Shown: positions 13,738-53,130, counted from the stretch's first letter. The stretch is 64,000 nucleotides of DNA from an uncultured Methanosarcinales archaeon (GCA_964572035.1 CAZNDX010000002.1:144056-208055), one strand, 5' to 3'. The notes: a model not told the origin generated them from the sequence alone. Program-made: numbers and translations.

Positions 13738-13738
13738 A

Positions 13739-27734: not shown

Positions 27735-27784
27735 ACACATTCTCTAAATAAATACAAAAAGTTGTGATTTTAGGAGGTCATACT

Positions 27785-30343: not shown

Positions 30344-30359
30344 ACGCAACATTTAAATA
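30344..30359 (+). promoter_or_regulatory. promoter element ACGCAACATTTAAATA (second copy) upstream of the large surface-protein operon
   Basis: Exact 16-nt identity with 27719-27734; followed by AAGGGTGG SD-like and GTG start. Confidence 0.5.
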
Positions 30360-30399
30360 CTGTAACGCTGTTTTAAATACAATAAAAAGGGTGGATTTA

Positions 30400-32553
30400 G
30401 TGACAAAAAAGGGACAGATAACAGTCTTCATAATCATCGGCATAATAATCGTTGTCCTTATCGGAATCGCTCTCTATTTCTTCAGAACAGGCGAAATCGG
30501 AAGATTTGAAGCCGCGCGACCATCCCTTGAGGAGTTGCCACAGGAAGTCGCGCCCCTGCGAGAACAAGTACACTCTGCGATGAGACAAGTCGCTGTAGAC
30601 GCATTGCGAAGAATAGGCCAAAGCGGAGGATACGTGGACACAACATTTCTTGCGTCAAACTACTACAACCCAACAGAAGGCGACAGCGTTTCATTATTCC
30701 CTGACGGAGAACCTACAGCTTACTGGTACTACATGAAAAGCAGGAACAGCTGTGAAAGCGGTTGCGAATTCACATCCAAACGACCAGCACTTTATCGCGA
30801 ACAAGGCGGAATAAACATTGAAAGCCAACTGGATAATTACGTTTCAGAAAATCTGCCTTTATCGGTAAATTTTGAAAGCGCAGTGCCAAACTGCGATGTA
30901 ACAGTATTGGACAGTCCAGTTGTAACATCAACAATCTCTGAAAATGACGTATTCTTTGTCGCGAAATGGCAACTGCGAGCGAATTGCGGAGGAGCGACAT
31001 ATACTGTCGACGAATTTTACGTTCCACTCGATGTAAACTTGAAAGAGATTTATGACGTCGCGACAGAAATAACAAACATGCAAGCGGACAACCAAATGCT
31101 CGAACAAGCGACAAAAAACATAATCGATTTGTTCTCCCAAGTAAACAGCAAAAAACTTCCACCAACACGAGATTTGGAAATAGGAATATTTGACCCTGGA
31201 GAAATGTGGATAAAATATGACGTAACACAAAACTTGAAATCAACACTCGCTTCATACATCCCATTCATGCAGGCGTTCGGCACACGAAACTATGACTACG
31301 TCGTTTCACCAACAGACGCAAGAGACGCAGAACTTTACGAAAACATATACAACAGACACTTCTTAGTCCCACTTGAAGGATTCCATCCAGACCTCGAAGT
31401 ACGCTTCGCATACTACGACACATGGGAACCATACTTTGATTTGAACTGCAACGGACAAATATGCCGAGCAGACAGCGCCCAAGTAATGATTCCCCCATTG
31501 TTCATGACGATAAACAGATATAACTTCCCATATGATTTGAGCTATCCGGTGCAGGTTGAACTTCGCAATCCATATGCTTTGAACGGAGAAGGATACGTAT
31601 TCAACATAATGCTGGAACAAAATTTACGAAACACAGAGCCCGCAGTATTAGGCCAGCCATTCAATTTGACACTGCCAGCACGCGAACCATCATTATTCTG
31701 CGACCCGGGACAAAAAACAGCGGGACCAATAACCTTGACTGTTAAAAACGGACAAACAGGACAGCCAATACAAGACGCTAATGTCGCTTACTTGTGCGGG
31801 GAAGACATTTGCTCAATTGGAAAAACCGGAGCGGACGGAAAATTAATTGAGAAATACCCATTATGCCTCGGAGGCAATTTGCGAGTCGTAAAACAAGGAA
31901 TGCCATCCGCGAACTTACAGCTTGACTTAGTTGATGAAACAGAATATAATTTCACAGTAAACTTACAGCCTGTCCGAAATTTGAACGCAAGCATACGTAA
32001 TTATTTGTTCACAAAACAAAGCAAAAGAGGACAATGGTCTGTTGAATCAGGACCGCCAGTAAGACCGGAAGACTATCAACAAAGCATAATCACGCTTACA
32101 AAAGAGACACTCGCCAACGAAGAGCCGTTTGTTGTTGCGGCAATAATTGAAGGAGATGGAACGGCAAACCTAGAACTCGTTCCAGGAAAATACCACGTAA
32201 CAATTACAAGCCTGTTGCGCACGAACATAACAATACCAGTAGACGAACGATGCACTAAAGGCAAAAAAATCGGCGGAATAATAAAAGTTAGCGACGAAAA
32301 ATGCTACAAAGTTCCAACAGAACCGATAGTATTCGATGACACAAAACCATTCCCCTACTCAATGACACAATTCGATTGGGAAGTTACAAACTCAATGCTG
32401 GCCGGCAAAAACAGAATACAATTCAGACAATTCGTCATAGCGATAGACAAAGTCCCTCAAAATCAACGCGTGGTTGAAGACCTGACGCAAATTGAGAAAG
32501 TACAATTGTTCACGGAAGCAAGCAAAAACAGAATATTACCGGTGCTAACATGA
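30400..32553 (+). CDS. large (~717 aa) protein with type IV pilin-like class III signal peptide; paralog of 37956-40013
   Basis: N-terminus (M)TKKGQITVFIIIGIIIVVLIGIALYF (GTG start at 30400; alternative GTG 30391); shares motifs with the 685-aa paralog (GQSGGYVD/GTQGGYIN, L.NY..E.LP..VNF). Confidence 0.75.
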   Translation: MTKKGQITVFIIIGIIIVVLIGIALYFFRTGEIGRFEAARPSLEELPQEVAPLREQVHSAMRQVAVDALRRIGQSGGYVDTTFLASNYYNPTEGDSVSLFPDGEPTAYWYYMKSRNSCESGCEFTSKRPALYREQGGINIESQLDNYVSENLPLSVNFESAVPNCDVTVLDSPVVTSTISENDVFFVAKWQLRANCGGATYTVDEFYVPLDVNLKEIYDVATEITNMQADNQMLEQATKNIIDLFSQVNSKKLPPTRDLEIGIFDPGEMWIKYDVTQNLKSTLASYIPFMQAFGTRNYDYVVSPTDARDAELYENIYNRHFLVPLEGFHPDLEVRFAYYDTWEPYFDLNCNGQICRADSAQVMIPPLFMTINRYNFPYDLSYPVQVELRNPYALNGEGYVFNIMLEQNLRNTEPAVLGQPFNLTLPAREPSLFCDPGQKTAGPITLTVKNGQTGQPIQDANVAYLCGEDICSIGKTGADGKLIEKYPLCLGGNLRVVKQGMPSANLQLDLVDETEYNFTVNLQPVRNLNASIRNYLFTKQSKRGQWSVESGPPVRPEDYQQSIITLTKETLANEEPFVVAAIIEGDGTANLELVPGKYHVTITSLLRTNITIPVDERCTKGKKIGGIIKVSDEKCYKVPTEPIVFDDTKPFPYSMTQFDWEVTNSMLAGKNRIQFRQFVIAIDKVPQNQRVVEDLTQIEKVQLFTEASKNRILPVLT

Positions 32554-35500
32554 AAAGAACAATACTACTGAGATATTCCGCGATTTTCATGGCTATCTTG
32601 ATAGTGACGCTTCCAGTAGCTTTCGCTCAAGAGTTGAATGTGAACAAGTATTCAGGCATGGACAACGCGAACGGGGCGATAAAGTCAGAGGATAATCTGA
32701 CAATCGAGGTTCGCGCGCAAATACCAGGCGACCCAACAATAATGAAAGACCAAGTGCGCCTCGTTTTGGGAACAGAATTTTTGACATTCGACAATTGCGT
32801 AAAAACAGCGGAGCCAAACTATTACACCTGCACATTTGAAGACGAGGTTGAAGTTTTTGAAAGCCTTCCCTTTTCCATAGAATTATGGAATGATGACAAC
32901 CAAAAAATTAAAACAGCCAATGCCAGCATTATAGTTGACGCCCTCGCGCCGACTGTCAAAAATTTCAGCGTAACGCCAGAAATGAGCAACGGAAATGTTG
33001 ATATTTCTTTCAAGATTGAAGATTATGGACTAAATTCTGCCGTCGCGGCGCAATGCTCAGGAGTAAAATCAGTCCTGATTGTTTCACAGCAAGGCGATGT
33101 GAACACAACAGTCGCGACAAGAACAGGAACATCAGGAACTTGCCTGCTTGAAGATGAATTCCCAGTCACACTAACGACATCAGGAGAACAGACGATTTGT
33201 CTTTACACAAAAGATTTCGTCAACTATGACGCGCCACCAAAATGTGTCGAAATTGTTGTAGACCACACACCGCCGAACATTTCCGCAATAAGCATAGTTA
33301 ACCACTTAGGAGATGATATAACTCACGTTCACTCAGGATACGAAATACCGGCGAATATTCACGCTCTGATAACGGATGACGGACAAATTGACACAACACA
33401 AGTATTCGCCGACTTTAACAAGTTAAGCCCCGCTTACGGGATGAATGCTCCTGCAGATTACAATACGGGAAGCATTTACACTTGGTCACAAATACCGGTC
33501 AAAGAAGTAAGTCCGTGCAGCCTGACAATTAAAGCAACAGACACTCTTGGAAACACCGCGGTGCAAACAATCGACTGTTCGATAAGAGCTGACGACGCGG
33601 CGCCAATATTTGTAAGGCACAAACCGCAAGCTCTGCGCGGAAATATCTCACTCTTAGGATATGATACTCCCTTTATCCTTGAATTCGACGAAAAAGACAA
33701 CACAGGCGCAAAGGGAATTGGAATGAGCTTGATTAATTCGTATTTAGATATGTCAGATATTGGCTTGACAAACTTTGAAAGAGCAGACACTTGTTATGAA
33801 ACAGAAGGAACAAAATGGGAATGCGCCTGGTATGTAAAACCTCCCGCATCAGTATCGCAAGGAGCATACACTTTCACACTAGTAGAAGGAACATCGGACG
33901 ACCTTGATAACTTCGCAACATTCGGTCAAACATTTGACGTCGTTTATGACAATGACGGGCCGGACGGAGCAGTGATTAAAGAATTCGCGATAATCTCACA
34001 AGAAGAAGCGCCTTTGAAAGAAGGAGCGATAATGGGCGACAGTTTATCATTCGTCGTCAGCGCGGCGAACTTCACATCAGTAACGGCGAACTTCTCAGAC
34101 TTCGGCGGAGACCAAAAGGCAACTCCTGTGCAGGTGGGTTGCAGTTCAGACAACAACACAGTGGACTGCGAATTCGTGCAACCAATAGAATTAGAAGGAC
34201 CATACACAGGAAATGCGACCTTCACATTCGTAGATGACGCCAATAACAGAGCGGTAGTTTCGAAACAAATAGAAATTTACGGAGTAGGCGGCGAAACATC
34301 GGCAAACTTCTGGACAGTACACAGCATAGACTGCACGCCAAGACTGATAGATAGAGAAGTGGCGAGCGCAAGACCTCCATACGTTTCTTGCAGAATAACT
34401 TTGAGAACGCCACGAACGGATATAACACCATTAAGTGTGGTCTCGTCAACAGATCCATTGACTGATTGTACAGGAAATACGACGTACCTTCGCGATGTTT
34501 ATGTAACGAATGATATTGTCGGTAAAAAAGATCCTTACTTGTTTTATGTACTTGAACCAACTAATTACGACATAAATCAACTAAATATTTCATGCCCACT
34601 AATAGTTCGCTCACTAAAAACAAATAGCACAGGGAAATTTGCGATACCAGGAAGTCAAACAATCAAAGTTAACACGACATTTGAGTTCTACAACAATCCA
34701 GCAGGAGAAGCCTTTGCGAACGTAGACAGCAAAATACAGCGCTCGCTAAACAACGGTTTCGCAATGCAAGACTGGCTAGGGCAATTACAAAAGATTTTGT
34801 TTTATGCGCAACAAATATGCACATTATTCAGCACGATATCTGTTGTGTTGAATGCGATAGCGCAAATAACCACTGCGTTTGGAGTAACAGGAAGCGTACT
34901 CAAAAAGGTGCCGTACGGACAGGCAGCAGGTCAATCACTTGAAAACACCGCTTCAACTTTCTGCAATACTGAAGTCACACTTGAAGATAGCATTTATGGC
35001 GAAACCGTAAAGCCAATACTAAACACAATTTGCGGACTCGCAACCTGCCAGTCAGCAGCAGATGACAACTGGTCACCAGACATAAATTGGCTTGGAGGAG
35101 GAGTCCCATGGTGTAGAGGAGAATTTAACCTTGGAACATGGGGAATTCCGGCACTAGAACAATTGGGTGCTTCATCACAAGATGTCAATATTCGCGACTC
35201 GCTAGTTCTAAGCACTGCGTGTTTGTGCCTGCCAGGAATAATTTATAATTTGGAAAAAATGAGGCAAATTTACTGCTTTGAAGCTGTATGCTACCACGAT
35301 ATGGTCAAAGAAAACGGTTATCCAGTAAGCTTCTGCAATGGACAATATAACTATATGTGGTGCACTTTCGTGATTAATGAAGTATTCGCTGGAGCGCCAT
35401 TCGTTGGACTATTCAATAGGATGATGGACATGGCGCTAAGCATAGTAAGCAATCCATTAATTGGAGTCGGAATCGCTTTTGGTGCGTATTGCCGAACAGC

Positions 35501-35702
35501 CTGTCCAAAATTCCCTGCAGATGGTGCGGTTGCTTCAGCGGAATTTATGGCATGCTCGGCATACAAACTATTTGGAGCACTAATGGAAGGAGTCAGCGTA
35601 TTCTGGGCAATGGCGGAATCTGGAAGCGAATTCTGGAGACCAGTACAAAATAACTATTGCTCAAGAGCTGAAGATATACGGGACGATTATGAGGAAGATT
35701 AA
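32550..35702 (+). CDS. 1050-aa secreted Cys-rich surface protein with C-terminal hydrophobic/Cys domain shared with the 2280-aa protein
   Basis: Signal peptide MKRTILLRYSAIFMAILIVTLPVAFAQ; ATGA overlap with upstream gene; C-terminal ...ACLCLPGIIYNLEKM... aligns with ...RCICLPAVISYLQLW... of the giant protein. Confidence 0.8.
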   Translation: MKRTILLRYSAIFMAILIVTLPVAFAQELNVNKYSGMDNANGAIKSEDNLTIEVRAQIPGDPTIMKDQVRLVLGTEFLTFDNCVKTAEPNYYTCTFEDEVEVFESLPFSIELWNDDNQKIKTANASIIVDALAPTVKNFSVTPEMSNGNVDISFKIEDYGLNSAVAAQCSGVKSVLIVSQQGDVNTTVATRTGTSGTCLLEDEFPVTLTTSGEQTICLYTKDFVNYDAPPKCVEIVVDHTPPNISAISIVNHLGDDITHVHSGYEIPANIHALITDDGQIDTTQVFADFNKLSPAYGMNAPADYNTGSIYTWSQIPVKEVSPCSLTIKATDTLGNTAVQTIDCSIRADDAAPIFVRHKPQALRGNISLLGYDTPFILEFDEKDNTGAKGIGMSLINSYLDMSDIGLTNFERADTCYETEGTKWECAWYVKPPASVSQGAYTFTLVEGTSDDLDNFATFGQTFDVVYDNDGPDGAVIKEFAIISQEEAPLKEGAIMGDSLSFVVSAANFTSVTANFSDFGGDQKATPVQVGCSSDNNTVDCEFVQPIELEGPYTGNATFTFVDDANNRAVVSKQIEIYGVGGETSANFWTVHSIDCTPRLIDREVASARPPYVSCRITLRTPRTDITPLSVVSSTDPLTDCTGNTTYLRDVYVTNDIVGKKDPYLFYVLEPTNYDINQLNISCPLIVRSLKTNSTGKFAIPGSQTIKVNTTFEFYNNPAGEAFANVDSKIQRSLNNGFAMQDWLGQLQKILFYAQQICTLFSTISVVLNAIAQITTAFGVTGSVLKKVPYGQAAGQSLENTASTFCNTEVTLEDSIYGETVKPILNTICGLATCQSAADDNWSPDINWLGGGVPWCRGEFNLGTWGIPALEQLGASSQDVNIRDSLVLSTACLCLPGIIYNLEKMRQIYCFEAVCYHDMVKENGYPVSFCNGQYNYMWCTFVINEVFAGAPFVGLFNRMMDMALSIVSNPLIGVGIAFGAYCRTACPKFPADGAVASAEFMACSAYKLFGALMEGVSVFWAMAESGSEFWRPVQNNYCSRAEDIRDDYEED

Positions 35703-37073
35703 ATGAAAAAAGCAATATTCACGATAGGAGTAATTTTAATGTTCTCCATCATAGCAATAGCTCAGCCGGTTTATGATGATGTTCCAATAGATGGAGGTCA
35801 AAGTCCAAGTGAGTCTGCACCAATTCCACAAACAACACCTCCTCAAACACCCGCTCCAACCGCTTCTCCTGCTTCTCAGCCATCGCAAGGACTTCCATAT
35901 AATCCGTTCCCATCAACAATTCCACACAAACCAACAGGATACAAGATAGGAAAAGAACAGAAATATTCTGGCTATACTGGATTTAATATGAACCCGCAGA
36001 CAGGACAAAGAACAGGATATACCTACTATGGTACGGATGGAAGCAGCGTTGCCAGAGTAAGTCCCAGCGGTTATGAAACTTGGGACGGAAGCAAATGGAC
36101 AACGACAACATACCAAGGAATGAGAGACAAAATTTTGGAGTACGAAAATCAATACGTTGACAAAACGGTAACAGATCCCGCCCAAAGAGAAGCGCTCAGA
36201 GGAAAAGCGAACGAAAACGCCAATGACGCAGCAAAACGCATGGAAAACCAAGCAGTAGCCGGAGGATACGTATCCCAGTGCGCGAATCCCTGGAGATGCA
36301 TGGGCAACATGATGAAAGCATATGATGAATACAGCGGAATTGGAGAAGCAACAGCGATGTTTTTCCCATCGTATCAACAATGGACCAGAGATGTCAGAAG
36401 AACAATCAGCCAAACATTCTGCGGATTTGTAAGCATACAAAACTGCTTTGAGAGTTTGATATGCGGTGCGGTGTTAGATATCAGTTCAGGAAATGTAATC
36501 TCAGGAAATGTTCTTCTTGGAAGAAATGCGCAAGGACAGCCAATTCCAGCAGGACATTTAAGTGCTGAGAGGTCGTTACCAATCGTTCTGAAAGGATTGG
36601 AAAGAGAACTTCTACTTGATATAATAGGCACTGAAATCGCAGTCATAAACGGTAAAGTTGTAAACATTTCTGAAGTTAACCTTGAAGAACTACCTGCAAC
36701 AGAATTAAGACTTTACAGAATACAATACAGTATAACAAACAGTCACACGGATAAGGATTTGAAATTTAACCTTGAGGTAAAAGGACAAACAACAAGAAAC
36801 TTCTTTTCAAATGATAAAACCTTGAAGCCAGGACAAACGGCGACACAAACAATAGAAGTGTACAGCGCGACAAAATATGAAGATATTTGTTTAACTTTTA
36901 ATCCGTCATTGCCGGCAGGAACAGGAAGCACTTTAATAGTAGCTCCAAAAATGGTAAGCCAACTCTGCAAACCAATAGTTGAATACGCGGGAGGAGCTAC
37001 CTCAGTAGGAAATTACGCCGCTCAAGAAAAAGAATCACAACAGAGCGGAACACCACAAGGGGGATTCATATGA
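35703..37073 (+). CDS. 456-aa secreted protein with Pro/Thr/Ser-rich linker
   Basis: Signal peptide MKKAIFTIGVILMFSIIAIAQP, then PQTTPPQTPAPTASPASQPSQ linker; start abuts upstream stop (TAAATG). Confidence 0.75.
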   Translation: MKKAIFTIGVILMFSIIAIAQPVYDDVPIDGGQSPSESAPIPQTTPPQTPAPTASPASQPSQGLPYNPFPSTIPHKPTGYKIGKEQKYSGYTGFNMNPQTGQRTGYTYYGTDGSSVARVSPSGYETWDGSKWTTTTYQGMRDKILEYENQYVDKTVTDPAQREALRGKANENANDAAKRMENQAVAGGYVSQCANPWRCMGNMMKAYDEYSGIGEATAMFFPSYQQWTRDVRRTISQTFCGFVSIQNCFESLICGAVLDISSGNVISGNVLLGRNAQGQPIPAGHLSAERSLPIVLKGLERELLLDIIGTEIAVINGKVVNISEVNLEELPATELRLYRIQYSITNSHTDKDLKFNLEVKGQTTRNFFSNDKTLKPGQTATQTIEVYSATKYEDICLTFNPSLPAGTGSTLIVAPKMVSQLCKPIVEYAGGATSVGNYAAQEKESQQSGTPQGGFI

Positions 37074-37945
37074 ACACTAAGCTAATCTCGATTGCAGTTA
37101 TAATAGTCGCGGCCGCGGCATACTTCATGAAAATACCTGGCGCAATAATACTTGGAGCCATAGGAATACTTATGTTATTGCTCCCAACAAAATACATTTC
37201 AGACTTAATCACAAAATACTTCAACGTGCTCAAACAATACAAAAAATTAGCGTCAATAGTCGCTTACGACGCGCTATTCTGGGCGGCAGTATCTGGTTTT
37301 GCTTTAATTTATCAAAATTTATTTGAGAAAAAACTTTTGGCCGAATACGCCGAAACAGGATTCAGCAAAGAAGCGCTGCTTGACCCTGCCTCAACGGCGG
37401 TACTCGCAGAATCACTTCGTGGAATAATAATTTACACTTTAGGTGGACTCGCAATATTCGTTTTGCTAACATTTATCGCGTATACGATTAGCAGATATTA
37501 CATCTGGACAGAATTATCATCGCAAAAACGCAGCAAAAAAATATTTTGGGCCTATGCCAGATTAACAGGCGTATGGTGGGCGATATTAATAATTCCCGCA
37601 GTTGTAATAATAGCAGCCGCGACAAAAACACCACAGGTGGCTGCTTTGGTTTTGATATTTTTTATCGCCGCAGGACACTTCACAAACTTCCTATACACAA
37701 ACTTAGTCAAAACAAGCAAAGCAGGACAATCTCTCACAATGGGAATAGCTATGGGACTTTCCAAAGTTCATAGGGTAATTGTTCCATACGCGATAATATT
37801 CGCCACATGGTGGGCGCTAAGCACAATAGCAAGCATAGTTAGTTATATGCACCAAGGAGCTGCCACAGCAGTAACGCTTTTATTCGCACTAACAATACTA
37901 GCGATAAGCAGAGCATACCTATACACAATCATCAAATCATTGTAA
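37070..37945 (+). CDS. polytopic integral membrane protein (about 7-8 TM)
   Basis: 291 aa, repeated 20-aa hydrophobic stretches; ATGA overlap with upstream gene. Confidence 0.7.
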   Translation: MNTKLISIAVIIVAAAAYFMKIPGAIILGAIGILMLLLPTKYISDLITKYFNVLKQYKKLASIVAYDALFWAAVSGFALIYQNLFEKKLLAEYAETGFSKEALLDPASTAVLAESLRGIIIYTLGGLAIFVLLTFIAYTISRYYIWTELSSQKRSKKIFWAYARLTGVWWAILIIPAVVIIAAATKTPQVAALVLIFFIAAGHFTNFLYTNLVKTSKAGQSLTMGIAMGLSKVHRVIVPYAIIFATWWALSTIASIVSYMHQGAATAVTLLFALTILAISRAYLYTIIKSL

Positions 37946-37955
37946 AAAAGAGGAA

Positions 37956-40013
37956 ATGAAAAAGAGCAACAGAAAGGGCCAATTAACGGTCTTCATAATA
38001 ATAGGACTCCTTATACTGATTAGCATCGCGACTATCATTTACTTCACGCAAGTCCGAACAACAGCTCCATTACAGAGAGTAGTCGCGGTACCGGAAGACA
38101 TACAACCAGTATACGACCACATAGCCCAATGCTTGAACGACATAAGCAAAAGAGGACTTGAACGACTGGGAACACAAGGCGGATACATCAACATGCCACC
38201 ATACATTTCAAACAATCCAAACGCGCACATCAAAAATGATGCGCTAGGAGTATCACAAACAGCACTATGGTACTACGAAGGCGAAGACAGAACACCAACA
38301 ATAGAATTCATGCAAAAAGAATTACAGGATTACATCAAAGCGGAACTGCCAGCGTGCGTAAACTTCATAGCATTCGCGGACAGATACGAAATACAAGTCG
38401 CGTCGCCACTAACAAGCATCGTGACATTCACAGACAACCAAGTAATCGCTGAAGCAAGATGGTTGCTGAACATTAAAGTCGGAGAAAAAATAATACAACA
38501 CGACGAATACGTCGCGCAGCACAACCTCGCCTTCGCGCCAATAGTCCGCCTCGCGACTGAAACAATGAAGTATGAAAATGAAAACGAATGGTTTGAAGAT
38601 TTGACAATACAATTATTGACATCAAATCCAGAAATTCCATTCGACGGTCTAGAATTCTTCTGCGGAACCAAAAAATGGCAAGTCAGACAAGTTAAAAGTG
38701 AAATACAAAACACGCTCGCAACAAGCATGCCTCTGATAAGAATAGCGGGAACAAACTATCCTGCTCCACTCGCGTCACCAAGCGTTTACAGAAATCTCAA
38801 AGATGAAGCGGAAGATATACGCGACGACTTGAACGAAGGAAAAGAACCGGATTGGCCAACAAACGTGCCAGCGGACGTTTTCGAAATGAACAGAATGATG
38901 CTCGACATAGGAATACCATCAACAAACTTGGTCGCGGGATTCGTCTACCAGCCACACTGGACAACATACATGGACGTCCAGCCAAGCCAAGGCGGAATGA
39001 TGTCAACAGCACAAATGAAAGGACCCAAACAATACCTGAGATTCCTATGCATGAACCAATGGCATTTCACTTACGACTTGATTTATCCAATAAAAATGAT
39101 GATACGAGACAACTCGGCGTTTGACGGACAAGGATACATATTCAACTTCGGATTCCCAGTAATAATAGAAGACAACGCCGAAAGCAGAAACGTATTCGGA
39201 GTAAGAAGATTTGACGTGCCAATAGAAGGAGTAGACTTCTGCGACAGAATAGGAACAGAAGCGCTTGACGTCCGCGCGACAGGATTCGTAGAAGGAGGTT
39301 TCACCGCGGAAGAGTTGGCTGACGTAAACATAACATATTCCTGCGGACCGCAAGCCTGCGTCCTTGGAAAAACATACAGCGACGGAAGCGGAGCAATAAG
39401 ATTACAAACACTTCTCCCAGAAGGATGCGCAAATCCAGGAATAACAGGAACAAAAGACGGATACTTATCAGACACGAAATTCGCGCTAACAAACAGAGTA
39501 GACTTGCAGCTAACAAGACTCAAACCAATGAACATTACACTACAAATAGTTCCATACTACGAAGTTGTAAATCCACAAAACCCCATGAGCGCATCCCAAC
39601 AAAGATGGCTTGACGAGCAAACAACAAGCAGATTCACACAATCAATGAAAGCGACAGTTGCCATCAGCGCGACAAACAAAAACTATGACCAATACTTGAT
39701 GTATCCATTATCAAAAGATGAAAAGGACGCTGGACTTGGCGGAAACATTAACTTAATTTATGACACAGCGCAATACGACATTGACGTAATATTATTCCAA
39801 GGCGACACGCCAATCGGCGGATACCACGCTGAAAACATCACAATAACGTACGATGAACTTGCGGCGACAAACAACATGATATTAAACGTCGTTGAATACA
39901 GACCAAAACCAACACAGCCATACCAAGAAGCGGGAATGTTCATATTCCTATACGAAAGAGGAGAAAAAGACGGACAACCGTACTATTTGGCGCTTAAGCC
40001 AACATTCACATGA
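37956..40013 (+). CDS. 685-aa protein with type IV pilin-like class III signal peptide; paralog of 30400-32553
   Basis: MKKSNRKGQLTVFIIIGLLILISIATIIYF; SD AGAGGA upstream; shared motifs with first paralog. Confidence 0.8.
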   Translation: MKKSNRKGQLTVFIIIGLLILISIATIIYFTQVRTTAPLQRVVAVPEDIQPVYDHIAQCLNDISKRGLERLGTQGGYINMPPYISNNPNAHIKNDALGVSQTALWYYEGEDRTPTIEFMQKELQDYIKAELPACVNFIAFADRYEIQVASPLTSIVTFTDNQVIAEARWLLNIKVGEKIIQHDEYVAQHNLAFAPIVRLATETMKYENENEWFEDLTIQLLTSNPEIPFDGLEFFCGTKKWQVRQVKSEIQNTLATSMPLIRIAGTNYPAPLASPSVYRNLKDEAEDIRDDLNEGKEPDWPTNVPADVFEMNRMMLDIGIPSTNLVAGFVYQPHWTTYMDVQPSQGGMMSTAQMKGPKQYLRFLCMNQWHFTYDLIYPIKMMIRDNSAFDGQGYIFNFGFPVIIEDNAESRNVFGVRRFDVPIEGVDFCDRIGTEALDVRATGFVEGGFTAEELADVNITYSCGPQACVLGKTYSDGSGAIRLQTLLPEGCANPGITGTKDGYLSDTKFALTNRVDLQLTRLKPMNITLQIVPYYEVVNPQNPMSASQQRWLDEQTTSRFTQSMKATVAISATNKNYDQYLMYPLSKDEKDAGLGGNINLIYDTAQYDIDVILFQGDTPIGGYHAENITITYDELAATNNMILNVVEYRPKPTQPYQEAGMFIFLYERGEKDGQPYYLALKPTFT

Positions 40014-43000
40014 AATTGAACAAACTAAACAGACACATATCAATAATGCTTATCTGGTTAGTAATGACTCTGCCATTCGCTTCAGCTCAAGCGACAAGCC
40101 CGCCAACAGTCACAATATCAAACGTTCAACTAAACCACGGCGCGCAAACAGTCATAACATGGCAAACAAACGTTTTAGCCAACGGATACGTTGAATGGGG
40201 AAACACAAGCGCTCTAGGAACAAACACGACAACGCCGCAAGGAACACTACACACCGCGACTTTGAATACAGTCGCTGGACAAACATACTATTATAGGGTT
40301 GTAAGCTGCGAAACAACCTGCGCAAGCACACAAACAGACTCGTTCACAGCAGGACCGCTCTTCATTACGACAAGCATAGCGCCATACGTCAGAACAGCAA
40401 ATATAGACATACCGGGAAGAACAAGAGCAGGAGCAAGAGTAGACCTTTACGTGAACTCAGTAATGGTTCGCTCACAAAACACTTCGACGGAAGCGTTTGT
40501 TTTCAGAGGAGTGCAATTACAACCGGTAAATAACGTAACACTTCGAGCATTCTACAATAATGAACAAGCTGAAAAAAGCTTCACATTGCGGGTTGACAGT
40601 GAACCGCCAAGAATAACAGTTGATATGCCAAGAATCGCGACACAACCTTCAGTCGTCGCGCGGGTCACAACAACAGAACCGGTAAACATCAGCGTAACAA
40701 CAAGAAGGGTTGACGCGTCGCCGCCAGGAAGACCAACGGCGCTGACACTTCAAGGATCCACAAACAACAGAGTTGAATTAGCGTGGACAAACGCAAGCGG
40801 AGCAACAGAATATTTGGTGCGAAGAGACGGAATAATAATCGGCAAAACAACATCAAACACATACGCGGATACGACTGTTGGCGCGGACAGACAATACGAT
40901 TATGAAATACTCGCCGTGAATGCCGCGTGCATGCAAAGCGAGCCATCTGCAACACTCGCAGTAACAACACCAGGCGGAACAAACACACAAGGGCCAGTTG
41001 TTGAAGTAAAAGCGAGCTGTGAAAGAGACGCGCAAAGCTATTTGGTAACGGCAAGCGCGGATATAACAGTAAATTTAGTTGAAGGCGAGAATTTGGTTAC
41101 GTTCACCGCAACAGACGCCGCAGGATTTGAAAGCATAATAGAAGAAACAGTAATTTACGATTTGGCGCCACCACAATTCTTGGAACAAAACTTGGACTCG
41201 CTGACTCCGTCGTATTCTCCGCAAGTAGTGGTTCGCGGTAAACTATCAGAAAAAGGAAGTGTTACCGTTTTTGTAAACGATAGAGCGGCGGCGACAAAAG
41301 CGACAGAAGACGATGGAAGTTTCACAATACCAGTACTTCTCGACAGAAGCGTGCAAGTAAAAACGGACGTGCTGGCAGCAGGATTGGATACCGGCGTCGG
41401 ATACAGCAACAAAATGCAACTAGAAGCGACAGACGCAGTAGGACAAAAAACAAGAACAGAACAAGTAGACGTCGTATACGCAATCTGCGGATTCGGAACA
41501 GACTTTGACATTAAAATATCAAACCCAGTCCCGGACGTTCTCAACCCAAGATTAATGCACGAAGGACTGCAACAACTAGGAATATCATTCTCATACGAAT
41601 ACAAAGGAGGAAACAACGCGGTTGTCGCTCCCGGAGCAGTTCGCGTAACACCAATACAATTGGCGCCAGCAGTCGCGAAAGAATATGATAATAGTTTAGT
41701 TACAATAAGTTCTCAGACACAGGGCAAAAGAGGCTCGCAAAACGCAGGAGAAGGATACGTACAAGTAACATTTACTCCAATAACAGACCCGTGGACACAA
41801 TTCGGTGAAGGCAAAAAACCAAACAATCCAACTTTGTACGATATAGAAGACGCGATAGCAAGCCACAGAATGGCGTACAAAGATTTGAAAATCAAAGAGT
41901 GCAAAACGCCGGGAGTCGGATGCTACCGGTTGTTCATGAAATTAGAAATACCATACCAGATATCAACACAATCACAACAGTATTTACCTGAGCAGCCATT
42001 CGCAGGACAATTACAACCCGAGAATAAAGTCCAACAAACCTGCATCGATGTTGAAGTCGCGATAGACAGAAGAATAGACCCTGCGCATTTACCACAAGGC
42101 TTCTTGAAGGGAATGAGCGAAACATTAGGAGCAATAATAGAAGGAGTCGACACAGTATTGAAACCACTCAGGACGATTTATCAGTATTTATTCTACACTT
42201 GCATCGCGGGATGGTTTATTAGTTATGTTCCAACATTCCTAGAACAATACAATTGCAAATATTCGGTAATTGCTACCGCGGTCAGTGGAGAAGGCAAATT
42301 CGACGAGGGGGTCGCCGCGATAAACGCGTGCAAGACAGAATATCAAGGACAACAGGAGAGTTTGGACAACTGCGAAGCCTGCGCGACATGGAAGAAAAAC
42401 AAAAAATGGGTAGCGGACGTTTACAAACAAATCTGCGACAGAGTCGCGTGCCCAGCGGCGCCGTCATTGCAACACTACATAAAATCACGAGCAAATCAAC
42501 AGTTAACAGCAGTCAATGCACCAAAAGCAACTGCTCAAATGACTCAATACACCGCGAAAACGGGCGGCAAATTGTATCAAGGCTCGGATTGCGCGGCGTG
42601 GATGCAGGAAAGAAATAAACAAATAACTGGACAGGACGCTAAGAAACCGCCAAGTCTAGTTTTCACGACATCTGAAATAGAAGGAATTTACAATGACTGG
42701 CTAAAACACCGCTCAGACACAAGAACAGCAGATGAACAACAAGGAGTAGTCAACTGCGCGGCGCCACACCCAGCGACACCCGAGTGCTGCGGATATGAAT
42801 ACATGGACCAGTGGGGCTCAGCCTGCGGAATCGGAGGAACACTTGTTGGACAAGGAATAGATACGTTCGATGAAATTCAGGAAAGCACGTGCCTAGCGAT
42901 GGAAAAAGCGAACAAGCAACAAATCGGTTCAGGCGATACTGCGGTCTCGTGCGGCGGAATATCAAACGCTCTCGCAGGATTCTGCACAGCGGAAGGAGGA

Positions 43001-46000
43001 ACGCCGCTAGATTACATCAAAGTCACAACATTCAGCGGAAGCGCGACAGAAAACACAGGAAAACTCGCTGAACTTGGAATAGGAAAAGCTTCAGACCACT
43101 ATTTGTACATATTACTCGTTCCACAAACAGGAGCAGGAGCAACACAAGATTACTCGATTAAATTAGGATACATCGTTGAAGACATAGAATTCGCCCAAAC
43201 AGAACAAAGCAAAACAGTTTCTGACGAAAGCAAATATGACGTAAACAAAAGAATGAGAGCGGTTGAATTGCAAGGATATGATGTTCAAAAGTATTTCTCA
43301 CAAGATAATATTGACAAATATTACGCAGGCAATCTCAACACCGCCGTCTATACTGATTTGGCCAATACACTTTGCGCCGCGGCAGATAAAGGCGGTAACT
43401 GTGTAAACGGCAAAACAATGTATGACGCTGTGATAAACAAAATAGGAAAACCCGATCAGGAGTATATTATCGACCCGAGAAAAGGAATAATCAACGCGAT
43501 AAGATGCATTTGCCTGCCCGCTGTAATAAGTTATTTGCAGTTATGGAGAAACATTATGGCTGCTGTCAAAAACTGCGTTGACACAATAAGATTCACTGGC
43601 GACGGAAACCCAGGAGTCTGTCAAGAAATGATATCCAAATATGCTTGCGACTTGATTTACGAAGCTCTTGCCTGTTTCACTGAAAAATTCAGCGTCGGAG
43701 GAGGAAGACCCGGAGGTCGAGACCTCTTTGGAGCGTTGACATCAGCAGGAACGGAAATGAGCAATGACATCCAAGGAAGATATGGAGGAACAACAACATA
43801 CCAAGCAATGTTCACCCAAGGACAAATCGTAAAGTCTGTATGTAATTTCGCGTTTACTGGAACTTGGAGCTTGGACTTCGCGGCAATAGCGGATTCAAGC
43901 ATAGATGACTTCCCAATCGAAAGCCAGAGCTTCCTGTACCCATGCGACAGAAGATTCGTAAGTTTCAACCCGCTAACTTCTCCGCCAGGAATGACCACCT
44001 GGATATACCATTTCGGCGTATTCATCGCGCCAGGAGCGGACATTGACATAGAATTCGCTTTGAAATGCAGCGGCGGATACAAATGCAGCGAAAACGACGG
44101 ATTCGAACGCGGCAAATGCGACTGTGACACAGAAAAAACACTTTCAATCGCTCCAACAGACTTGCCAACAAGAGCAACCAAAGGAGAAATAGTTGACAGC
44201 GCGGTATATTATACTGTAGCAGGAAACCCTGGCGGAACGATACGTTATGATAAGGCAGTTCTAACATACAAATGGAAAGACAGCACAGGAAAGGACGCAA
44301 GCAAATCACTAGAGTGCAGAATCAACCAACTCGGCGGAGCTCCAAACTTCTGCAGATTTGACATGTTTAGCGGAGCGTATAGATGCCAATTCGGACCTGA
44401 ACAGGGCGGAATACAACTCGGAGCTCCAGAAGTAAGCTATTCGCACAACGTATCAGTAACAGCGGGAAGTCCGCCACTCGGAGTCTACGCATTAAATGAA
44501 AACTTGAACATCAACGTACCAATCAGACAAGCGTATATGGGAGAAGTCTCAGAAACCAAATTCCTCCAATGGGAAATATTAGGACCGGGAGGAGCGATGG
44601 TCGCCAACAATTCAGCAAGCATAACAAAACTTGACACCAACGGCGACTACATGAAAAACATTGGCTCAAGCACATTCGATCCAAAAGTTCCACTCAAAAA
44701 AGAATGGTTCGGAGGCGCGACATCGGCCGGCGGACAAACAACAACATCAACATACTGGCACACAGGACTAACAACCCCAACAACAGGAAACTGGATAGCA
44801 AACGCGCAGTACCTTGAGAACGGCGCAGCGTACCAAGGAAACAAACAGTTCGTCGTTGAAAAAGAAGGAACAACATACCGAGTATACAACGCAGGACCAC
44901 AAACAGGTGTGAACGCCCAAGTAGGATTCACAAGCAAAGGAACAAGCGCGTGCACACCAACAGTATTGCCGAATACACTTGACTGCACAATTGCCCCAGG
45001 CGCAAACGAAGTCAACCCGCCAACAAGAAGATTACTGGTAACATTGGGACAAACATTCCCGGCACAGCCAAAAATACAGGCGCACATAAACATCGGACTA
45101 ATAACGGCATCCGGAGACTTCTGCACGGGAGACAACAGATACAAACCAGTAACGTTCACAGTAAAAATCGCGGCGTACGATGGAAACGAACTCGGACAAA
45201 TAACAGACATGATCGCGATAAATCCAACAACAAACGAAGAAGCGAGAACAACAGCCACGTTCCAAGCAATGTGCGTAGACGCGACGGACCAGAAGTTCAA
45301 GGATATGGAAAAAATGGTTGGAACAATGTGTCCTGTTGGCTATGCTGATGGCACAACAACCGGATGCTTCGCTCAAAAACCAAGCGATGAATGGACTCCG
45401 GTTCAGGCAAGTTGCGTAACAGGAATCTGCTATCAGGCAAAGCAACAAATTACAGTTGACAATGCGCCTTATGTTCCTAATATGAGAGTCGAACTTAAAC
45501 CCGTCAATGTGGTCTTTAAATTACCATTATTAAAAGAAACAGATTCTGACAAGCCAACCATAGTGCTCAGCGCAGGAATAATGGGAATTAATTTGGATCC
45601 GCAATCAGACACTTTCTCAAATAATATGAGAACAACAACGTTTAATTTTGACACTTCAACTTTAACAGCACAAACTCCTCTATTCTTGAGATATAAACTA
45701 ACAAATAAAGAAGAAACTTACACTCCATTAAATTTCACTTATGCCCAAACAATTGATACGGCAAAAACTCAACTGCTTAACGACCTCAAAGCAGACCTTC
45801 TTAAACAAGCAGATCAAAACATACAAACTCCTACACATGGAAGATACTTCAAAATACTCGCGGCAAGAAATCCTGCATCTTGGAGCGACAATAACAAAGC
45901 AGACGTCTTGAATAGAGTGAATGGCGCTCTCGTATCATATCAAGCAATGAAAATAAAACTTGACACGGCGATGAACGCGCTTACAGCTCAGGATAGGGCA

Positions 46001-46852
46001 TATCTTCAAAACGCGCAAACAAATATTGATTCATTAGTAGGTAAACTAAATTTGGCCAAGTTAGACTTGCAAAGAACGACAGTTCCTGTGGAGTATCTTA
46101 ACTGGGGAGAATATCTCTCTGAAACAATCGCAGACCTTAGCACTACGATGGATACAGTTTTCGTTAACTACTTGAGCGCATACGACCAACTCGCAGGAGG
46201 TTCATTCAAGGTCAATGGAAAAACACAGCCATTCGTTCTTCAACCAAAAGAAACTCTCACTGTTTCACAAAATTCATGGGACATATATCCACAGGGAGCT
46301 CATTACTTCACTAGTGAAAAGCACTTCTCATCATCACAGGCTTTATTCCCGACTTATTTGACAACATATGGGGCAAAAGAAATAAGAGGAACTTCACTTG
46401 GACCATTCAGCTGGACAAATCCAGTCATTGTGACATTTGAACTGCCTGCCTTGAATACGCAAATAAATCCAGTGGTCCAATACGCAGTTCAGTCGGGAAC
46501 ACAGTACAATTATGCCAACGTTCCCCAAATAAGTGGAATTTATCAGGTCCCAGTTAACTTCGCGATTTTTGACGCTCGCATCACAGTTCCAGGCGCGAAT
46601 TTCCAAGCGGGAGGCAATATTTGCTTCCAAGACAATTCACAAGGCAACCCTCCACAGAATCCGTCAGGATTAATCAAATATTGCAAATCATTAACATACT
46701 CTACTCAAAATAATGAATTCACTTCTCTTGACATTAATCCTTCAATAGTCACTCAAAATCTTGGCCGCAACAAACAATATGTCTTTTTCATGACGTACGA
46801 ATCAGGCGGGGCGCAATATAAAACCAACAATTTCCCAATAATTTTCCAATGA
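40010..46852 (+). CDS. giant (2280 aa) secreted multidomain surface protein with FN3-like domain and Cys-rich regions
   Basis: Signal peptide MKLNKLNRHISIMLIWLVMTLPFASAQA; FN3-like PPGRPTALTLQGSTNNRVELAWTNASGATEYLVRRDG...YDYEILAVN; many Cys; Thr/Gln/Asn-rich C-terminal third; ATGA coupling. Confidence 0.85.
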   Translation: MKLNKLNRHISIMLIWLVMTLPFASAQATSPPTVTISNVQLNHGAQTVITWQTNVLANGYVEWGNTSALGTNTTTPQGTLHTATLNTVAGQTYYYRVVSCETTCASTQTDSFTAGPLFITTSIAPYVRTANIDIPGRTRAGARVDLYVNSVMVRSQNTSTEAFVFRGVQLQPVNNVTLRAFYNNEQAEKSFTLRVDSEPPRITVDMPRIATQPSVVARVTTTEPVNISVTTRRVDASPPGRPTALTLQGSTNNRVELAWTNASGATEYLVRRDGIIIGKTTSNTYADTTVGADRQYDYEILAVNAACMQSEPSATLAVTTPGGTNTQGPVVEVKASCERDAQSYLVTASADITVNLVEGENLVTFTATDAAGFESIIEETVIYDLAPPQFLEQNLDSLTPSYSPQVVVRGKLSEKGSVTVFVNDRAAATKATEDDGSFTIPVLLDRSVQVKTDVLAAGLDTGVGYSNKMQLEATDAVGQKTRTEQVDVVYAICGFGTDFDIKISNPVPDVLNPRLMHEGLQQLGISFSYEYKGGNNAVVAPGAVRVTPIQLAPAVAKEYDNSLVTISSQTQGKRGSQNAGEGYVQVTFTPITDPWTQFGEGKKPNNPTLYDIEDAIASHRMAYKDLKIKECKTPGVGCYRLFMKLEIPYQISTQSQQYLPEQPFAGQLQPENKVQQTCIDVEVAIDRRIDPAHLPQGFLKGMSETLGAIIEGVDTVLKPLRTIYQYLFYTCIAGWFISYVPTFLEQYNCKYSVIATAVSGEGKFDEGVAAINACKTEYQGQQESLDNCEACATWKKNKKWVADVYKQICDRVACPAAPSLQHYIKSRANQQLTAVNAPKATAQMTQYTAKTGGKLYQGSDCAAWMQERNKQITGQDAKKPPSLVFTTSEIEGIYNDWLKHRSDTRTADEQQGVVNCAAPHPATPECCGYEYMDQWGSACGIGGTLVGQGIDTFDEIQESTCLAMEKANKQQIGSGDTAVSCGGISNALAGFCTAEGGTPLDYIKVTTFSGSATENTGKLAELGIGKASDHYLYILLVPQTGAGATQDYSIKLGYIVEDIEFAQTEQSKTVSDESKYDVNKRMRAVELQGYDVQKYFSQDNIDKYYAGNLNTAVYTDLANTLCAAADKGGNCVNGKTMYDAVINKIGKPDQEYIIDPRKGIINAIRCICLPAVISYLQLWRNIMAAVKNCVDTIRFTGDGNPGVCQEMISKYACDLIYEALACFTEKFSVGGGRPGGRDLFGALTSAGTEMSNDIQGRYGGTTTYQAMFTQGQIVKSVCNFAFTGTWSLDFAAIADSSIDDFPIESQSFLYPCDRRFVSFNPLTSPPGMTTWIYHFGVFIAPGADIDIEFALKCSGGYKCSENDGFERGKCDCDTEKTLSIAPTDLPTRATKGEIVDSAVYYTVAGNPGGTIRYDKAVLTYKWKDSTGKDASKSLECRINQLGGAPNFCRFDMFSGAYRCQFGPEQGGIQLGAPEVSYSHNVSVTAGSPPLGVYALNENLNINVPIRQAYMGEVSETKFLQWEILGPGGAMVANNSASITKLDTNGDYMKNIGSSTFDPKVPLKKEWFGGATSAGGQTTTSTYWHTGLTTPTTGNWIANAQYLENGAAYQGNKQFVVEKEGTTYRVYNAGPQTGVNAQVGFTSKGTSACTPTVLPNTLDCTIAPGANEVNPPTRRLLVTLGQTFPAQPKIQAHINIGLITASGDFCTGDNRYKPVTFTVKIAAYDGNELGQITDMIAINPTTNEEARTTATFQAMCVDATDQKFKDMEKMVGTMCPVGYADGTTTGCFAQKPSDEWTPVQASCVTGICYQAKQQITVDNAPYVPNMRVELKPVNVVFKLPLLKETDSDKPTIVLSAGIMGINLDPQSDTFSNNMRTTTFNFDTSTLTAQTPLFLRYKLTNKEETYTPLNFTYAQTIDTAKTQLLNDLKADLLKQADQNIQTPTHGRYFKILAARNPASWSDNNKADVLNRVNGALVSYQAMKIKLDTAMNALTAQDRAYLQNAQTNIDSLVGKLNLAKLDLQRTTVPVEYLNWGEYLSETIADLSTTMDTVFVNYLSAYDQLAGGSFKVNGKTQPFVLQPKETLTVSQNSWDIYPQGAHYFTSEKHFSSSQALFPTYLTTYGAKEIRGTSLGPFSWTNPVIVTFELPALNTQINPVVQYAVQSGTQYNYANVPQISGIYQVPVNFAIFDARITVPGANFQAGGNICFQDNSQGNPPQNPSGLIKYCKSLTYSTQNNEFTSLDINPSIVTQNLGRNKQYVFFMTYESGGAQYKTNNFPIIFQ

Positions 46853-47634
46853 AAACCCTTAATCTAACTTGGAACGCAATAAAAAATCACAAACTAAACT
46901 TCATTCTATCAATTCTTCTAGATTTTGTATTCATAACTGCGCTAGTTTTAGTTCAATACGCTTTCCTCGTTCCCACAATTGAAGCGCAAATGAAAACACT
47001 TGAGATAATAAACGCTGAAACAGCCAAACTGCCAACAGCGGAATACTACCAGCTGGACAGCATACTGACGCAAAACGAGGAATTTGAGGGCGCGTGGGCT
47101 GTTGTGAAAACATTCATCATAATGTTTTTGTTAACCGGATTTGGCGAGTGGATAATATTCAAAACACTTGCGTGGTGGCTGTCGCTTAAAACAATTTACA
47201 ACAAAGTCCCGTTTTCAGAAATAGCGTACAAGTTCCCACTGCTTTCATTATTTTGGTTTGTAGTTTTGTTTGTTGGCTTTGTTATATATTCAACCAGCAC
47301 AAGCTCATTGATTCCAATCGTATCTCCAACAATCGGCGCAGTACTTTATGGGGTCTTTTTCTTGGTTGTTATATATTTCGCGAGCGTCAGTTTCTCTCTT
47401 ATTCCGGCACGACAAACCTTTAAAAACACATTCGTCTTAGGATGGAAACATGCCAAGAAAATCCTGCCGGCATACGTCACAAACATTGTTCTCATTAGCG
47501 CGGTCTTTTACTTGCTATACCTCGCGGCAAAAGCTCAAACACCTGCAGCAGCATTCCTATTCATCCTACTGCTTATTACATTCGCGTTCGCAAGAACACA
47601 CATTATCGTAGCAACATGGCAAAAGCATCAATGA
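46849..47634 (+). CDS. polytopic integral membrane protein (about 6 TM)
   Basis: 261 aa, hydrophobic helices; ATGA overlap with giant gene. Confidence 0.7.
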   Translation: MKTLNLTWNAIKNHKLNFILSILLDFVFITALVLVQYAFLVPTIEAQMKTLEIINAETAKLPTAEYYQLDSILTQNEEFEGAWAVVKTFIIMFLLTGFGEWIIFKTLAWWLSLKTIYNKVPFSEIAYKFPLLSLFWFVVLFVGFVIYSTSTSSLIPIVSPTIGAVLYGVFFLVVIYFASVSFSLIPARQTFKNTFVLGWKHAKKILPAYVTNIVLISAVFYLLYLAAKAQTPAAAFLFILLLITFAFARTHIIVATWQKHQ

Positions 47635-48221
47635 CAAACATTGTAATTATCGTATTATTGCTGGTGATACTTGGAGTGCTCTTGATTTTGGCGATACAAA
47701 CTCCGCCATTACAAACAACTCCAGTAGAACAGCCAACACCAAAAGCGCCGTGGCTGGATGAACAGGTGATAGTAGTTGAAGAACCAACAACTCCAACACC
47801 AGACGCGCCAGAACCAACAGAGCCGGAGGGCGTTCCATTTGAAAGAGTTTACGCCCAAACAGTACAATTTTTTGTCAATAACATAAGAGTAGGGCTTGTA
47901 GACACTTATGATTACATCCCAATAAAGAAAAGTCAAGTGAAAACATTCGCAGGAACCTTTGGTCCTTACGCCCAAGACCCAACAGAATACATTCGCGTTG
48001 AACTTTGCGCAGAACTGGTTGATTTTCCGGCAAAACCCGCTTGTGAAGTCGTTCCAGTATTATACAGAGACGGTTATGTAAGCTTCGCGCGCGGATACAA
48101 ATACGACGAATACATTGGAGCGCAGGCAGCGAAAGATTACACCGCATACTATACTGTTTATGTCGGCGACACAGTCGTCGCTAACGGACCAAGAGCCAGA
48201 ATAAGAACAGTCAACGATTAA
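47616..48221 (+). CDS. N-terminally anchored secreted protein with Pro/Thr/Glu-rich linker
   Basis: MAKASMTNIVIIVLLLVILGVLLILAI then PPLQTTPVEQPTPKAP...EEPTTPTPDAPEPTEPE; overlaps upstream gene by 19 nt. Confidence 0.65.
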   Translation: MAKASMTNIVIIVLLLVILGVLLILAIQTPPLQTTPVEQPTPKAPWLDEQVIVVEEPTTPTPDAPEPTEPEGVPFERVYAQTVQFFVNNIRVGLVDTYDYIPIKKSQVKTFAGTFGPYAQDPTEYIRVELCAELVDFPAKPACEVVPVLYRDGYVSFARGYKYDEYIGAQAAKDYTAYYTVYVGDTVVANGPRARIRTVND

Positions 48222-52252: not shown

Positions 52253-52283
52253 CCTCTTTTTTGTTTTATAACGGCACTGCCAT

Positions 52284-53129: not shown

Positions 53130-53130
53130 C

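Follow-up and report, generated by a model that had tools for sequence, protein, structure and literature searches.

The window analysed here is a stretch of 64,000 nt of DNA from an uncultured Methanosarcinales archaeon (GCA_964572035.1 CAZNDX010000002.1:144056-208055). Eight consecutive open reading frames (ORFs) on its plus strand, spanning 30391-48221 and designated g1 to g8, encode proteins of 720, 1050, 456, 291, 685, 2280, 261 and 201 aa. These are the same-strand genes from which an original prediction had proposed a surface filament/adhesion system, and all eight were recovered in place. They are listed below with an upstream gene (g0) and a candidate promoter; A and B denote two related gene modules, and TM stands for transmembrane.

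29377-30282, plus strand: g0, 301-aa protein upstream of g1, a possible accessory (ninth) gene
30352-30359 and 30372-30379, plus strand: two TATA-like boxes, TTTAAATA, upstream of g1; candidate operon promoter
30391/30400-32553, plus strand: g1, 717/720-aa anchor of module A; class-III-like N-terminus with one N-terminal TM helix, an alpha/beta ectodomain, then C-terminal beta-sandwiches
32550-35702, plus strand: g2, 1050-aa giant protein of module A
35703-37073, plus strand: g3, 456-aa protein with a Sec signal and a Pro/Thr/Gln linker at 35802-35888
37070-37945, plus strand: g4, 291-aa polytopic membrane protein of module A
37956-40013, plus strand: g5, 685-aa anchor of module B
40010-45334, plus strand: g6 residues 1-1775, conserved part of the 2280-aa giant protein of module B
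45335-46852, plus strand: g6 residues 1776-2280, hypervariable C-terminal region
46849-47634, plus strand: g7, 261-aa 6-TM membrane protein of module B
47616-48221, plus strand: g8, 201 aa; N-terminal TM anchor, Pro/Thr/Glu linker (47703-47828) and C-terminal globular domain

The genes are closely coupled, largely through the ATGA and TAAATG junctions that had been predicted. ATGA overlaps occur at g1/g2, g3/g4, g5/g6 and g6/g7, and TAAATG joins g2 to g3. The exceptions are g4/g5, which are separated by a 10-nt gap containing GAGG, and g7/g8, which overlap by 19 nt; the latter junction also becomes ATGA if g8 starts at 47631. The g1 ORF opens at GTG 30391, and an alternative GTG at 30400, preceded by GGGTGG and giving MTKKGQ..., is the more likely start because it better fits the family consensus. 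Between 27734 and the window end, the TATA-like octamer TTTAAATA has only two plus-strand matches, at 30352 and 30372, and it is absent from that strand inside the operon (30400-48221). The two boxes are a candidate single promoter for all eight genes, in agreement with the lone recognisable promoter noted originally. T-rich runs follow the g8 stop codon. The GC content of the operon (0.41-0.45) is the same as that of its flanks, where the genes are housekeeping in character: threonyl-tRNA synthetase (ThrRS), PTH2, ribosomal protein S6e and a NOG1-type GTPase. They mark the window as archaeal DNA.

Module duplication and conservation of the operon

The pair of roughly 700-aa paralogs noted in the original prediction is genuine: g1 and g5 align by BLASTP with an E value of 6e-34 (25% identity over about 520 aa), and by hhalign with a probability of 100% and an E value of 3e-89. 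Kinship between g2 and g6 had been noted as a shared motif and extends far more widely, since alignment of their family profiles matches g2 residues 1-1019 with g6 residues 1-1295 (probability 96.7%, E 3e-10); g6 can thus be described as a g2-like protein extended at its C-terminus by about 1000 residues. A direct BLASTP comparison of the two gives an E value of 0.014, at the motif CLCLPGIIYNL / CICLPAVISYL. The two polytopic membrane proteins that had been described, g4 and g7, are in addition paralogous to each other. Independent hidden Markov models (HMMs) of the two families cross-match 37/41 and 34/42 members over their full length, with a best E value of 2e-26, and hhalign gives a probability of 98.9% (E 3e-17). 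HMM cross-searches and hhalign detected no kinship of g3 or g8 to each other, to g2, to g6 or to the rest of the operon. With g4/g7 paralogous beside g1/g5 and g2/g6, the operon is therefore, as judged from sequence, a tandem duplication of a module of anchor, giant protein and 6-TM protein, to which copy A adds g3 and copy B adds g8.

None of g1-g8 had a significant match in Pfam, NCBIfam or PHROG, nor did g0 or a 240-aa ORF at 27764-28486. Searches of the Protein Data Bank (PDB) with profiles of g1/g5, g2 and g4/g7, and with single g6 and g3 sequences, returned only weak immunoglobulin (Ig)/FN3-like matches. The g5 family comprised 78 clusters in a word-indexed search, all hypothetical proteins, and a g5 profile run against 1.84 billion representatives recovered 8,933 proteins at E<=1e-3, with 1,823 at E<=1e-30. 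Relatives are encoded in 434 stretches (one genome per GTDB species), of which 80 loci, from 80 related genomes, were kept for neighbourhood comparisons. Tens of these 80 genomes share the order g1-g2-g3-g4-g5-g6-g7(-g8), down to 26% g5 identity, and module B is found in some genomes without an adjoining module A. Either ThrRS or g0 lies upstream of the operon in many loci. The predicted g0 protein has a cytoplasmic helical N-terminus, one TM segment and a beta-rich ectodomain; in 12 closer relatives a member of its family precedes g1 or lies close to it, whereas distant relatives lack the family and have ThrRS abutting g1.

The named homologs come from Candidatus Woesearchaeota, Nanoarchaeia and Nanoarchaeota metagenome-assembled genomes, and by this sequence comparison the operon is conserved across Woesearchaeota-type DPANN archaea. 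Because gene order and neighbour families recur so widely, the comparison indicates a vertically inherited core operon and not a mobile element. A mobile or prophage origin was rejected on the lack of PHROG matches, the flank-like GC content and the conserved synteny beside ThrRS and NOG1. Apparent g1-g2 and g5-g6 fusions in two loci (L017 3-4976; L026 9810-17666), which would have counted as Rosetta-stone evidence, proved to be artefacts, with about 34 X codons (masked N) at the junctions. Published surveys record many families confined to DPANN lineages that lie in the membrane or outside the cell and lack a predicted function (PMC8204110). No description of this operon, of its families or of Woesearchaeal prepilin peptidases was found in the literature, and the operon appears to be undescribed so far.

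Predicted anchors, giant proteins and membrane proteins

The two anchors carry class-III-like N-termini, MTKKG^QITVFIIIG in g1 (KGQITVFIIIG at 30409-30441) and MKKSNRKG^QLTVFIIIG in g5 (KGQLTVFIIIG at 37974-38006), the caret marking the putative cleavage site. The logo of the combined g1 and g5 family, from about 100 homologs, reads [KR][KR][G/A/S]-Q-[IVL]-[TS]-[VIL]-F-I-I-[IL]-G, with a hydrophobic stretch that runs to about Tyr+21. Position -1 is restricted to G, A or S and position -2 to K or R, while Q+1, F+5 and G+9 are near-invariant. All sequences with the [KR]G motif (23/23 and 57/57) have Gln+1, as do the A/S variants. Leaders are as short as 3-4 residues, and the hydrophobic (H) domain spans about 21 aa. 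A position -1 restricted to small residues and followed by near-invariant ones is the pattern that a peptidase site would produce. Substrates of the Methanococcus maripaludis peptidase EppA are processed at RAQI, KGQV, KGQL and KGQI, with Gln+1 required (PMC4371748). Positions -2 to +2 of g1 and g5 are identical to these sites (PMC4371748), which upholds the EppA-type class III signals first proposed for the two proteins as far as the processing site is concerned. Curated models do not follow suit: full-length g1-g8 matched no pilin or class III model (Pfam Class_IIIsignal, N_methyl, TadE) at E<=1.

In 1.4 Mb of related loci, a KGQ-type N-terminus occurs almost only in the g1/g5 family and in a 300-aa short form of it, and no pilin-sized subunit carries the Q-x-T-x-F-I-I-x-G N-terminus of g1 and g5. 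The short form consists of the N-domain of g5 only and adjoins a different Sec-type Cys-rich protein of about 1010 aa (loci L008, L012 and L014). Because the short form sits next to this other secreted protein, the KGQ N-domain looks like a general membrane partner of large secreted proteins, as the sequences suggest. The pair, with the 300-aa KGQ protein followed by the ~1010-aa protein, lies divergently beside the operon (L008 5381-9300, minus strand; also L012 and L014), and the larger partner ends in a cupredoxin domain and weakly matches Peptidase_M64.

An AlphaFold2 model of g5, built from a 43-sequence alignment, reached a mean predicted local distance difference test score (pLDDT) of 85.7. 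Residues 7-36 form a TM helix, which is followed by a Pro-containing linker of low confidence; then come an alpha/beta domain at about 47-410, most of it above pLDDT 90, and transthyretin/CnaB-like beta-sandwiches at 436-650. In this model the linker appears to part the TM helix from the globular domain, in place of a continuous pilin-type alpha1 helix. Among the PDB and BFVD hits listed, the alpha/beta domain had no structural match, and no type IV pilin was among them.

The giant proteins g2 and g6, and also g3, have a Sec-type signal ending in A-x-A^Q (VAFA^QE in g2, FASA^QA in g6), as had been predicted for the 1050- and 2280-aa proteins. Neither g2 nor g6 has a terminal TM segment; lacking an anchor of their own, they would have to be held at the surface by something else, unless they are released. 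A model of g2 (11 sequences, pLDDT 57.8) shows about seven Ig-like beta-sandwiches at residues 28-715, followed at residues 720-1050 by a Cys-rich helical C-terminal domain containing the motif CLCLPGIIYNL (residues 891-901, nt 35220-35252). Across 36 g2 orthologs, 27 columns are invariant, of which 17 are Cys, most of them in this core, a pattern that points to an extracellular, disulfide-stabilised domain. The corresponding motif of g6, CICLPAVISYL, lies at residues 1166-1176 (nt 43505-43537). The Cys-rich motif is thus shared by both proteins as originally described, while its C-terminal placement holds for g2 only, the core of g6 being central. Hydrophobic helices with Kyte-Doolittle values of about 1.7 occur at g2 749-774 and 961-979 and at g6 1160-1178, and include the invariant LCLPGIIYNL-type motif. 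The FN3-like module reported in g6 was found again at residues 229-324 (nt 40694-40981) as a weak match, and fn3, Big_7, Big_13 and Glucodextran_B matches were obtained in g6 orthologs. Tandem beta-sandwiches of the Ig, FN3 or Big type, a trait of surface adhesins, are thus seen in the g2 model, in the weak PDB matches and in the g6 orthologs. N-glycosylation sequons are depleted in g6 (9 versus 20 expected) and not enriched in g1 or g5; g2 has 15.

The C-terminal end of g6 has diverged much faster than the rest of the operon. Between the window and a close relative (locus L086), identity is 93% for NOG1, 90% for g1, 87% for g5, 85% for g7 and 84% for g8, and all operon proteins outside g6, except g3, are 76-90% identical. 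Within g6, residues 1-1775 are 81% identical and residues 1776-2280 only 32%. The corresponding blastn comparison gave no match at 45312-46842, and similarity resumes at the start of g7. The same cliff in g6 identity was seen in two further relatives, while neither g5 nor g2 has a comparable one. The hypervariable region, inspected by eye, looks helix-rich and coiled-coil-like, followed by a C-terminal part of about 240 aa. A fast-evolving end on a conserved body is a typical mark of exposed recognition domains, and the adhesive role raised in the original prediction, or one in recognition, gains support from it. A milder, mosaic pattern was observed in g2, where two close relatives share about 90% identity over residues 1-600 and 50-75% over 600-1050, and a third shows the reverse (P0081/P0084/P0086); a blastn gap against L086 also falls at 34740-35087. 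Intragenic recombination may account for this mosaic.

In the g4/g7 family profile, six TM segments are conserved and the loops are alternately rich in K/R; catalytic-type residues are not conserved. Pfam searches of 49 members returned scattered noise only. A role as peptidase or sortase was rejected, as g4 and g7 have no Cys and no conserved Asp, His or Ser. Both linker proteins of the original description are present. The Pro/Thr-linker protein g3 has a conserved C-terminal part of about 250 aa and belongs to a family specific to module A, ranging from 318 to 1479 aa in relatives, and the globular domain of the anchored Pro/Thr/Glu-linker protein g8 is 54% identical to that of an ortholog (L002). 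Pairs of small nucleotidyltransferase (MNT) and HEPN-like genes are inserted exactly between g6 and g7 in several relatives (L002 19305-20265; L004 19072-20614; L086 17353-19679; L087 14742-17068). Each insertion in L086 comes with a repeat of the initial 150-180 nt of g7 (17347-17502, 18496-18676). The window has no MNT/HEPN insert, its g6/g7 junction being the ATGA overlap.

Interpretation of the proposed surface complex

The reading that we tentatively favour is that the operon encodes a membrane-anchored, hetero-oligomeric cell-surface complex of two paralogous modules that serves in recognition or adhesion and is not a filament. The signals of g1 and g5 would be cut after G, A or S, probably by a class III-type peptidase encoded elsewhere, and the conserved hydrophobic N-terminus (Q-x-T-x-F-I-I-x-G) would then stay in the membrane as an anchor. 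The anchor ectodomain would hold the giant protein, with its Ig/FN3-like array and disulfide-rich helical core, at the surface, and the anchor helices may rest on the 6-TM protein as their base or scaffold in the membrane. Coupled translation would supply the subunits in near-equimolar amounts. The fast-evolving C-terminal ~505 aa of g6 would form the distal exposed part, which may contact a partner cell or substrate or be a target of viruses. The complex itself would not be a type IV filament, and any peptidase or assembly factor would be encoded elsewhere. Of the surface filament/adhesion system originally proposed, the coupled operon of surface proteins is retained and the filament is not.

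Several observations weigh against this interpretation. Surface location, signal cleavage and subunit contacts are all inferred from sequence. Position +5 is Phe in 78/80 sequences, where EppA substrates typically have Glu, and the N-terminal motif could equally be a conserved signal-anchor that packs against g4/g7. When the 42-aa N-termini were searched against Pfam, the one match was to PF13400 Tad (TadE/G-like), sub-threshold at E 0.14. According to a preprint, type IV pilus components are missing in DPANN genomes, and therefore the peptidase that would cleave g1 and g5 may not exist. The Cys-rich core of g2 is unreliably modelled (pLDDT 30-45), and it contains hydrophobic helices that might enter the membrane. 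Finally, near-universal conservation beside core genes fits a structural envelope layer equally well.

Such a layer is the subject of a second, unlikely reading, in which g2 and g6 are the lattice ("canopy") proteins of an S-layer or envelope scaffold and g1 and g5, with g4, g7 and g8, are its membrane anchors, in the manner of SlaA/SlaB. The spread of the operon through Woesearchaeota-type genomes and its core-genome position beside ThrRS agree with this, and a hypervariable outer face would be expected if the layer is exposed to viruses. No DPANN S-layer protein has yet been determined, and the proposed one, MJ1_0160, has 1000 aa, 15 glycosylation sites, five Ig-like folds and no TM segment (bioRxiv 10.1101/2023.10.27.564410); g2 resembles it in general features (1050 aa, 15 sequons, about seven Ig-like folds, no TM segment). 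Eight coupled genes including two for 6-TM proteins, however, far exceed the parts of known archaeal S-layers, and the sequon depletion of g6 and lack of enrichment in g1 and g5 also speak against a lattice. Pfam, NCBIfam and PDB profile searches linked no operon protein to any S-layer family. To our knowledge, a Cys-rich helical core is not typical of S-layers. The operon further differs from SlaA/SlaB of Sulfolobales and from the proposed DPANN S-layer proteins (MJ1_0160, NEQ300) in its N-terminal anchor (that of SlaB is C-terminal), its duplicated module, its 6-TM partners and its Cys-rich helical core.

The filament itself we consider distinctly unlikely. Here g1 and g5 would be giant minor pilins or tip adhesins of a filament resembling a type IV pilus, with machinery and major pilin encoded elsewhere and the giant Sec-type proteins decorating it. 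The exact match to EppA sites at positions -2 to +2 (KGQI, KGQL, RAQ[ILV]), the short leader and the ~21-aa H-domain support it, as does, weakly, the TadE/G-like match. In their short basic leader, invariant Gln+1 and H-domain, as well as in their sites (KGQI/KGQL/KGQV/RAQI), g1 and g5 resemble the EppA-processed Epd pilins of M. maripaludis. Their families differ from the Epd pilins in size (650-720 aa), in the linker and large ectodomain and in Phe+5; the neighbourhood of the operon yielded neither EppA nor EpdL/J/K nor a major pilin, and the Pfam class III model is unmatched. TadG is a large class III protein, and modular pilins with large modules are reportedly known in bacteria (PilB/PilC of Streptococcus sanguinis). 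Large class III proteins are also known from archaeal type IV pilus loci, among them DUF2341 PilY-like proteins, in which a class III N-terminus carries a large surface or pilus-tip module (PMC4858521). All these proteins keep a pilin moiety and are encoded in or near loci with an ATPase, platform and pilins, whereas none of these was found in cis in the 80 genomes compared here; no DUF2341, vWA or lectin domain was detected in g1-g8 by Pfam.

The search for pilus machinery confirmed and extended the lack of an assembly ATPase, platform protein or peptidase in cis that had already been noted. None was found in the window, where ORFs of 150 aa or more were scanned with Pfam, or in the precomputed Pfam annotations of genes lying up to about 10 kb outside its two ends, and no secretion ATPase, platform or peptidase is among the recurrent neighbour families of the 80 loci. 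The 1.4 Mb of loci also contained no A24 peptidase (GxGD-type polytopic ORF). These results count against a filament, as do the want of a small subunit with the Q-x-T-x-F-I-I-x-G helix, Phe instead of Glu at +5, the absence of type IV pilins from the listed structural matches, the preprint report on DPANN genomes and the g5 model, in which a flexible Pro-containing linker appears to follow the TM helix in place of a continuous alpha1 helix on a sheet. One further point in favour of a filament is a pilin-sized ORF with a KRGQ N-terminus 2 kb upstream. This 240-aa ORF (27764-28486, plus strand) lies between ThrRS and PTH2, and its N-terminus, MKRGQSGIGLVILGVVAIIAVIGLVLLF, is class-III-like with Gln at +1; it is not among the recurrent neighbour families of related loci.

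Two related proposals assign the complex to host contact. In the first, which we regard as very unlikely, the operon is a host-contact machine of Woesearchaeota-type DPANN cells and a novel type of surface apparatus, in which class III anchors and 6-TM bases would hold the giant proteins, the variable head would select the partner and the core would engage or penetrate its membrane, all without a type IV pilus ATPase. The second, argued largely by analogy and with only a slight chance of being right, is an apparatus that breaches or bridges the partner membrane: the g2/g6 core would insert into the host envelope, and lipids or metabolites would pass through a conduit whose base consists of the anchors and the 6-TM proteins. 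The hydrophobic helices of the conserved core, where long helices are also predicted, and the hypervariable targeting region of g6 are in keeping with it. So is the setting, a reduced-genome DPANN archaeon whose cultured relatives form cytoplasmic connections of unknown protein makeup (PMC11420986). Against it, the core model is of very low confidence, g4 and g7 show no conservation of polar or catalytic residues of the kind that would point to a channel, no ATPase or other energy source lies in cis, and the proposal draws on composition and analogy.

A bindosome or set of ABC binding proteins was excluded, as Pfam and NCBIfam detected no substrate-binding protein or ABC domain in g1-g8. The Sulfolobus bindosome resembles the operon in using non-pilin class III surface proteins that stay associated with the membrane or envelope (PMC4371748), and differs in that the operon has no substrate-binding fold, ABC permease or ABC ATPase, its partners being giant Sec-type and 6-TM proteins.

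For an anchored recognition or adhesion complex, a parallel outside the archaea is offered by the P1-P40/P90 ("Nap") operon of Mycoplasma pneumoniae, in which a host-dependent cell with a reduced genome encodes giant hetero-oligomeric attachment proteins with variable exposed regions. The likeness is one of analogy, as the domain of life, folds, C-terminal TM anchoring and secretion signals differ.

Other loci in the window and significance

Three further loci in the window were recorded. A second cluster for secreted Cys-rich proteins (49875-55422, minus strand) encodes paralogs of 763, 304 and 488 aa with 43, 1 and 23 Cys and lipobox-like ...AC/...TAC signals, and among them a 281-aa coiled-coil TM protein; it has no sequence kinship to g1-g8 and no Pfam matches. 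A cluster at 10511-18093 (minus strand), comprising genes for a MoxR AAA ATPase, DUF58, DUF7502, a coiled-coil protein, a VWA protein (795 aa) and a BatA-VWA-DUF7406-8 protein (656 aa), resembles a Bat/aerotolerance-type operon. The gene at 7961-9835 (plus strand) encodes a multicopper oxidase of 624 aa that has an additional cupredoxin-like domain at its N-terminus, and a divergent MarR-type regulator gene is located upstream of it (7461-7949).

Judged by its sequence features, the operon would belong with the archaeal surface structures that use class III signals and an anchor-plus-canopy logic, and none of its components has a characterised relative. The Woesearchaeota and their DPANN kin are abundant, uncultured archaea with small genomes that are thought to depend on partners; their mode of attachment and exchange is unknown, and experiments have determined neither an S-layer protein nor an attachment protein of DPANN archaea. 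At ~18 kb, the operon would occupy about 2% of a genome of ~1 Mb, a size estimated from related contigs of up to 875 kb. Public data contain about 9,000 clusters (50% identity) of its anchor family, none of them annotated. The operon would extend EppA-type class III signals to large non-filament proteins, and it is a concrete candidate, open to testing, for the principal surface complex of the Woesearchaeota-type group.

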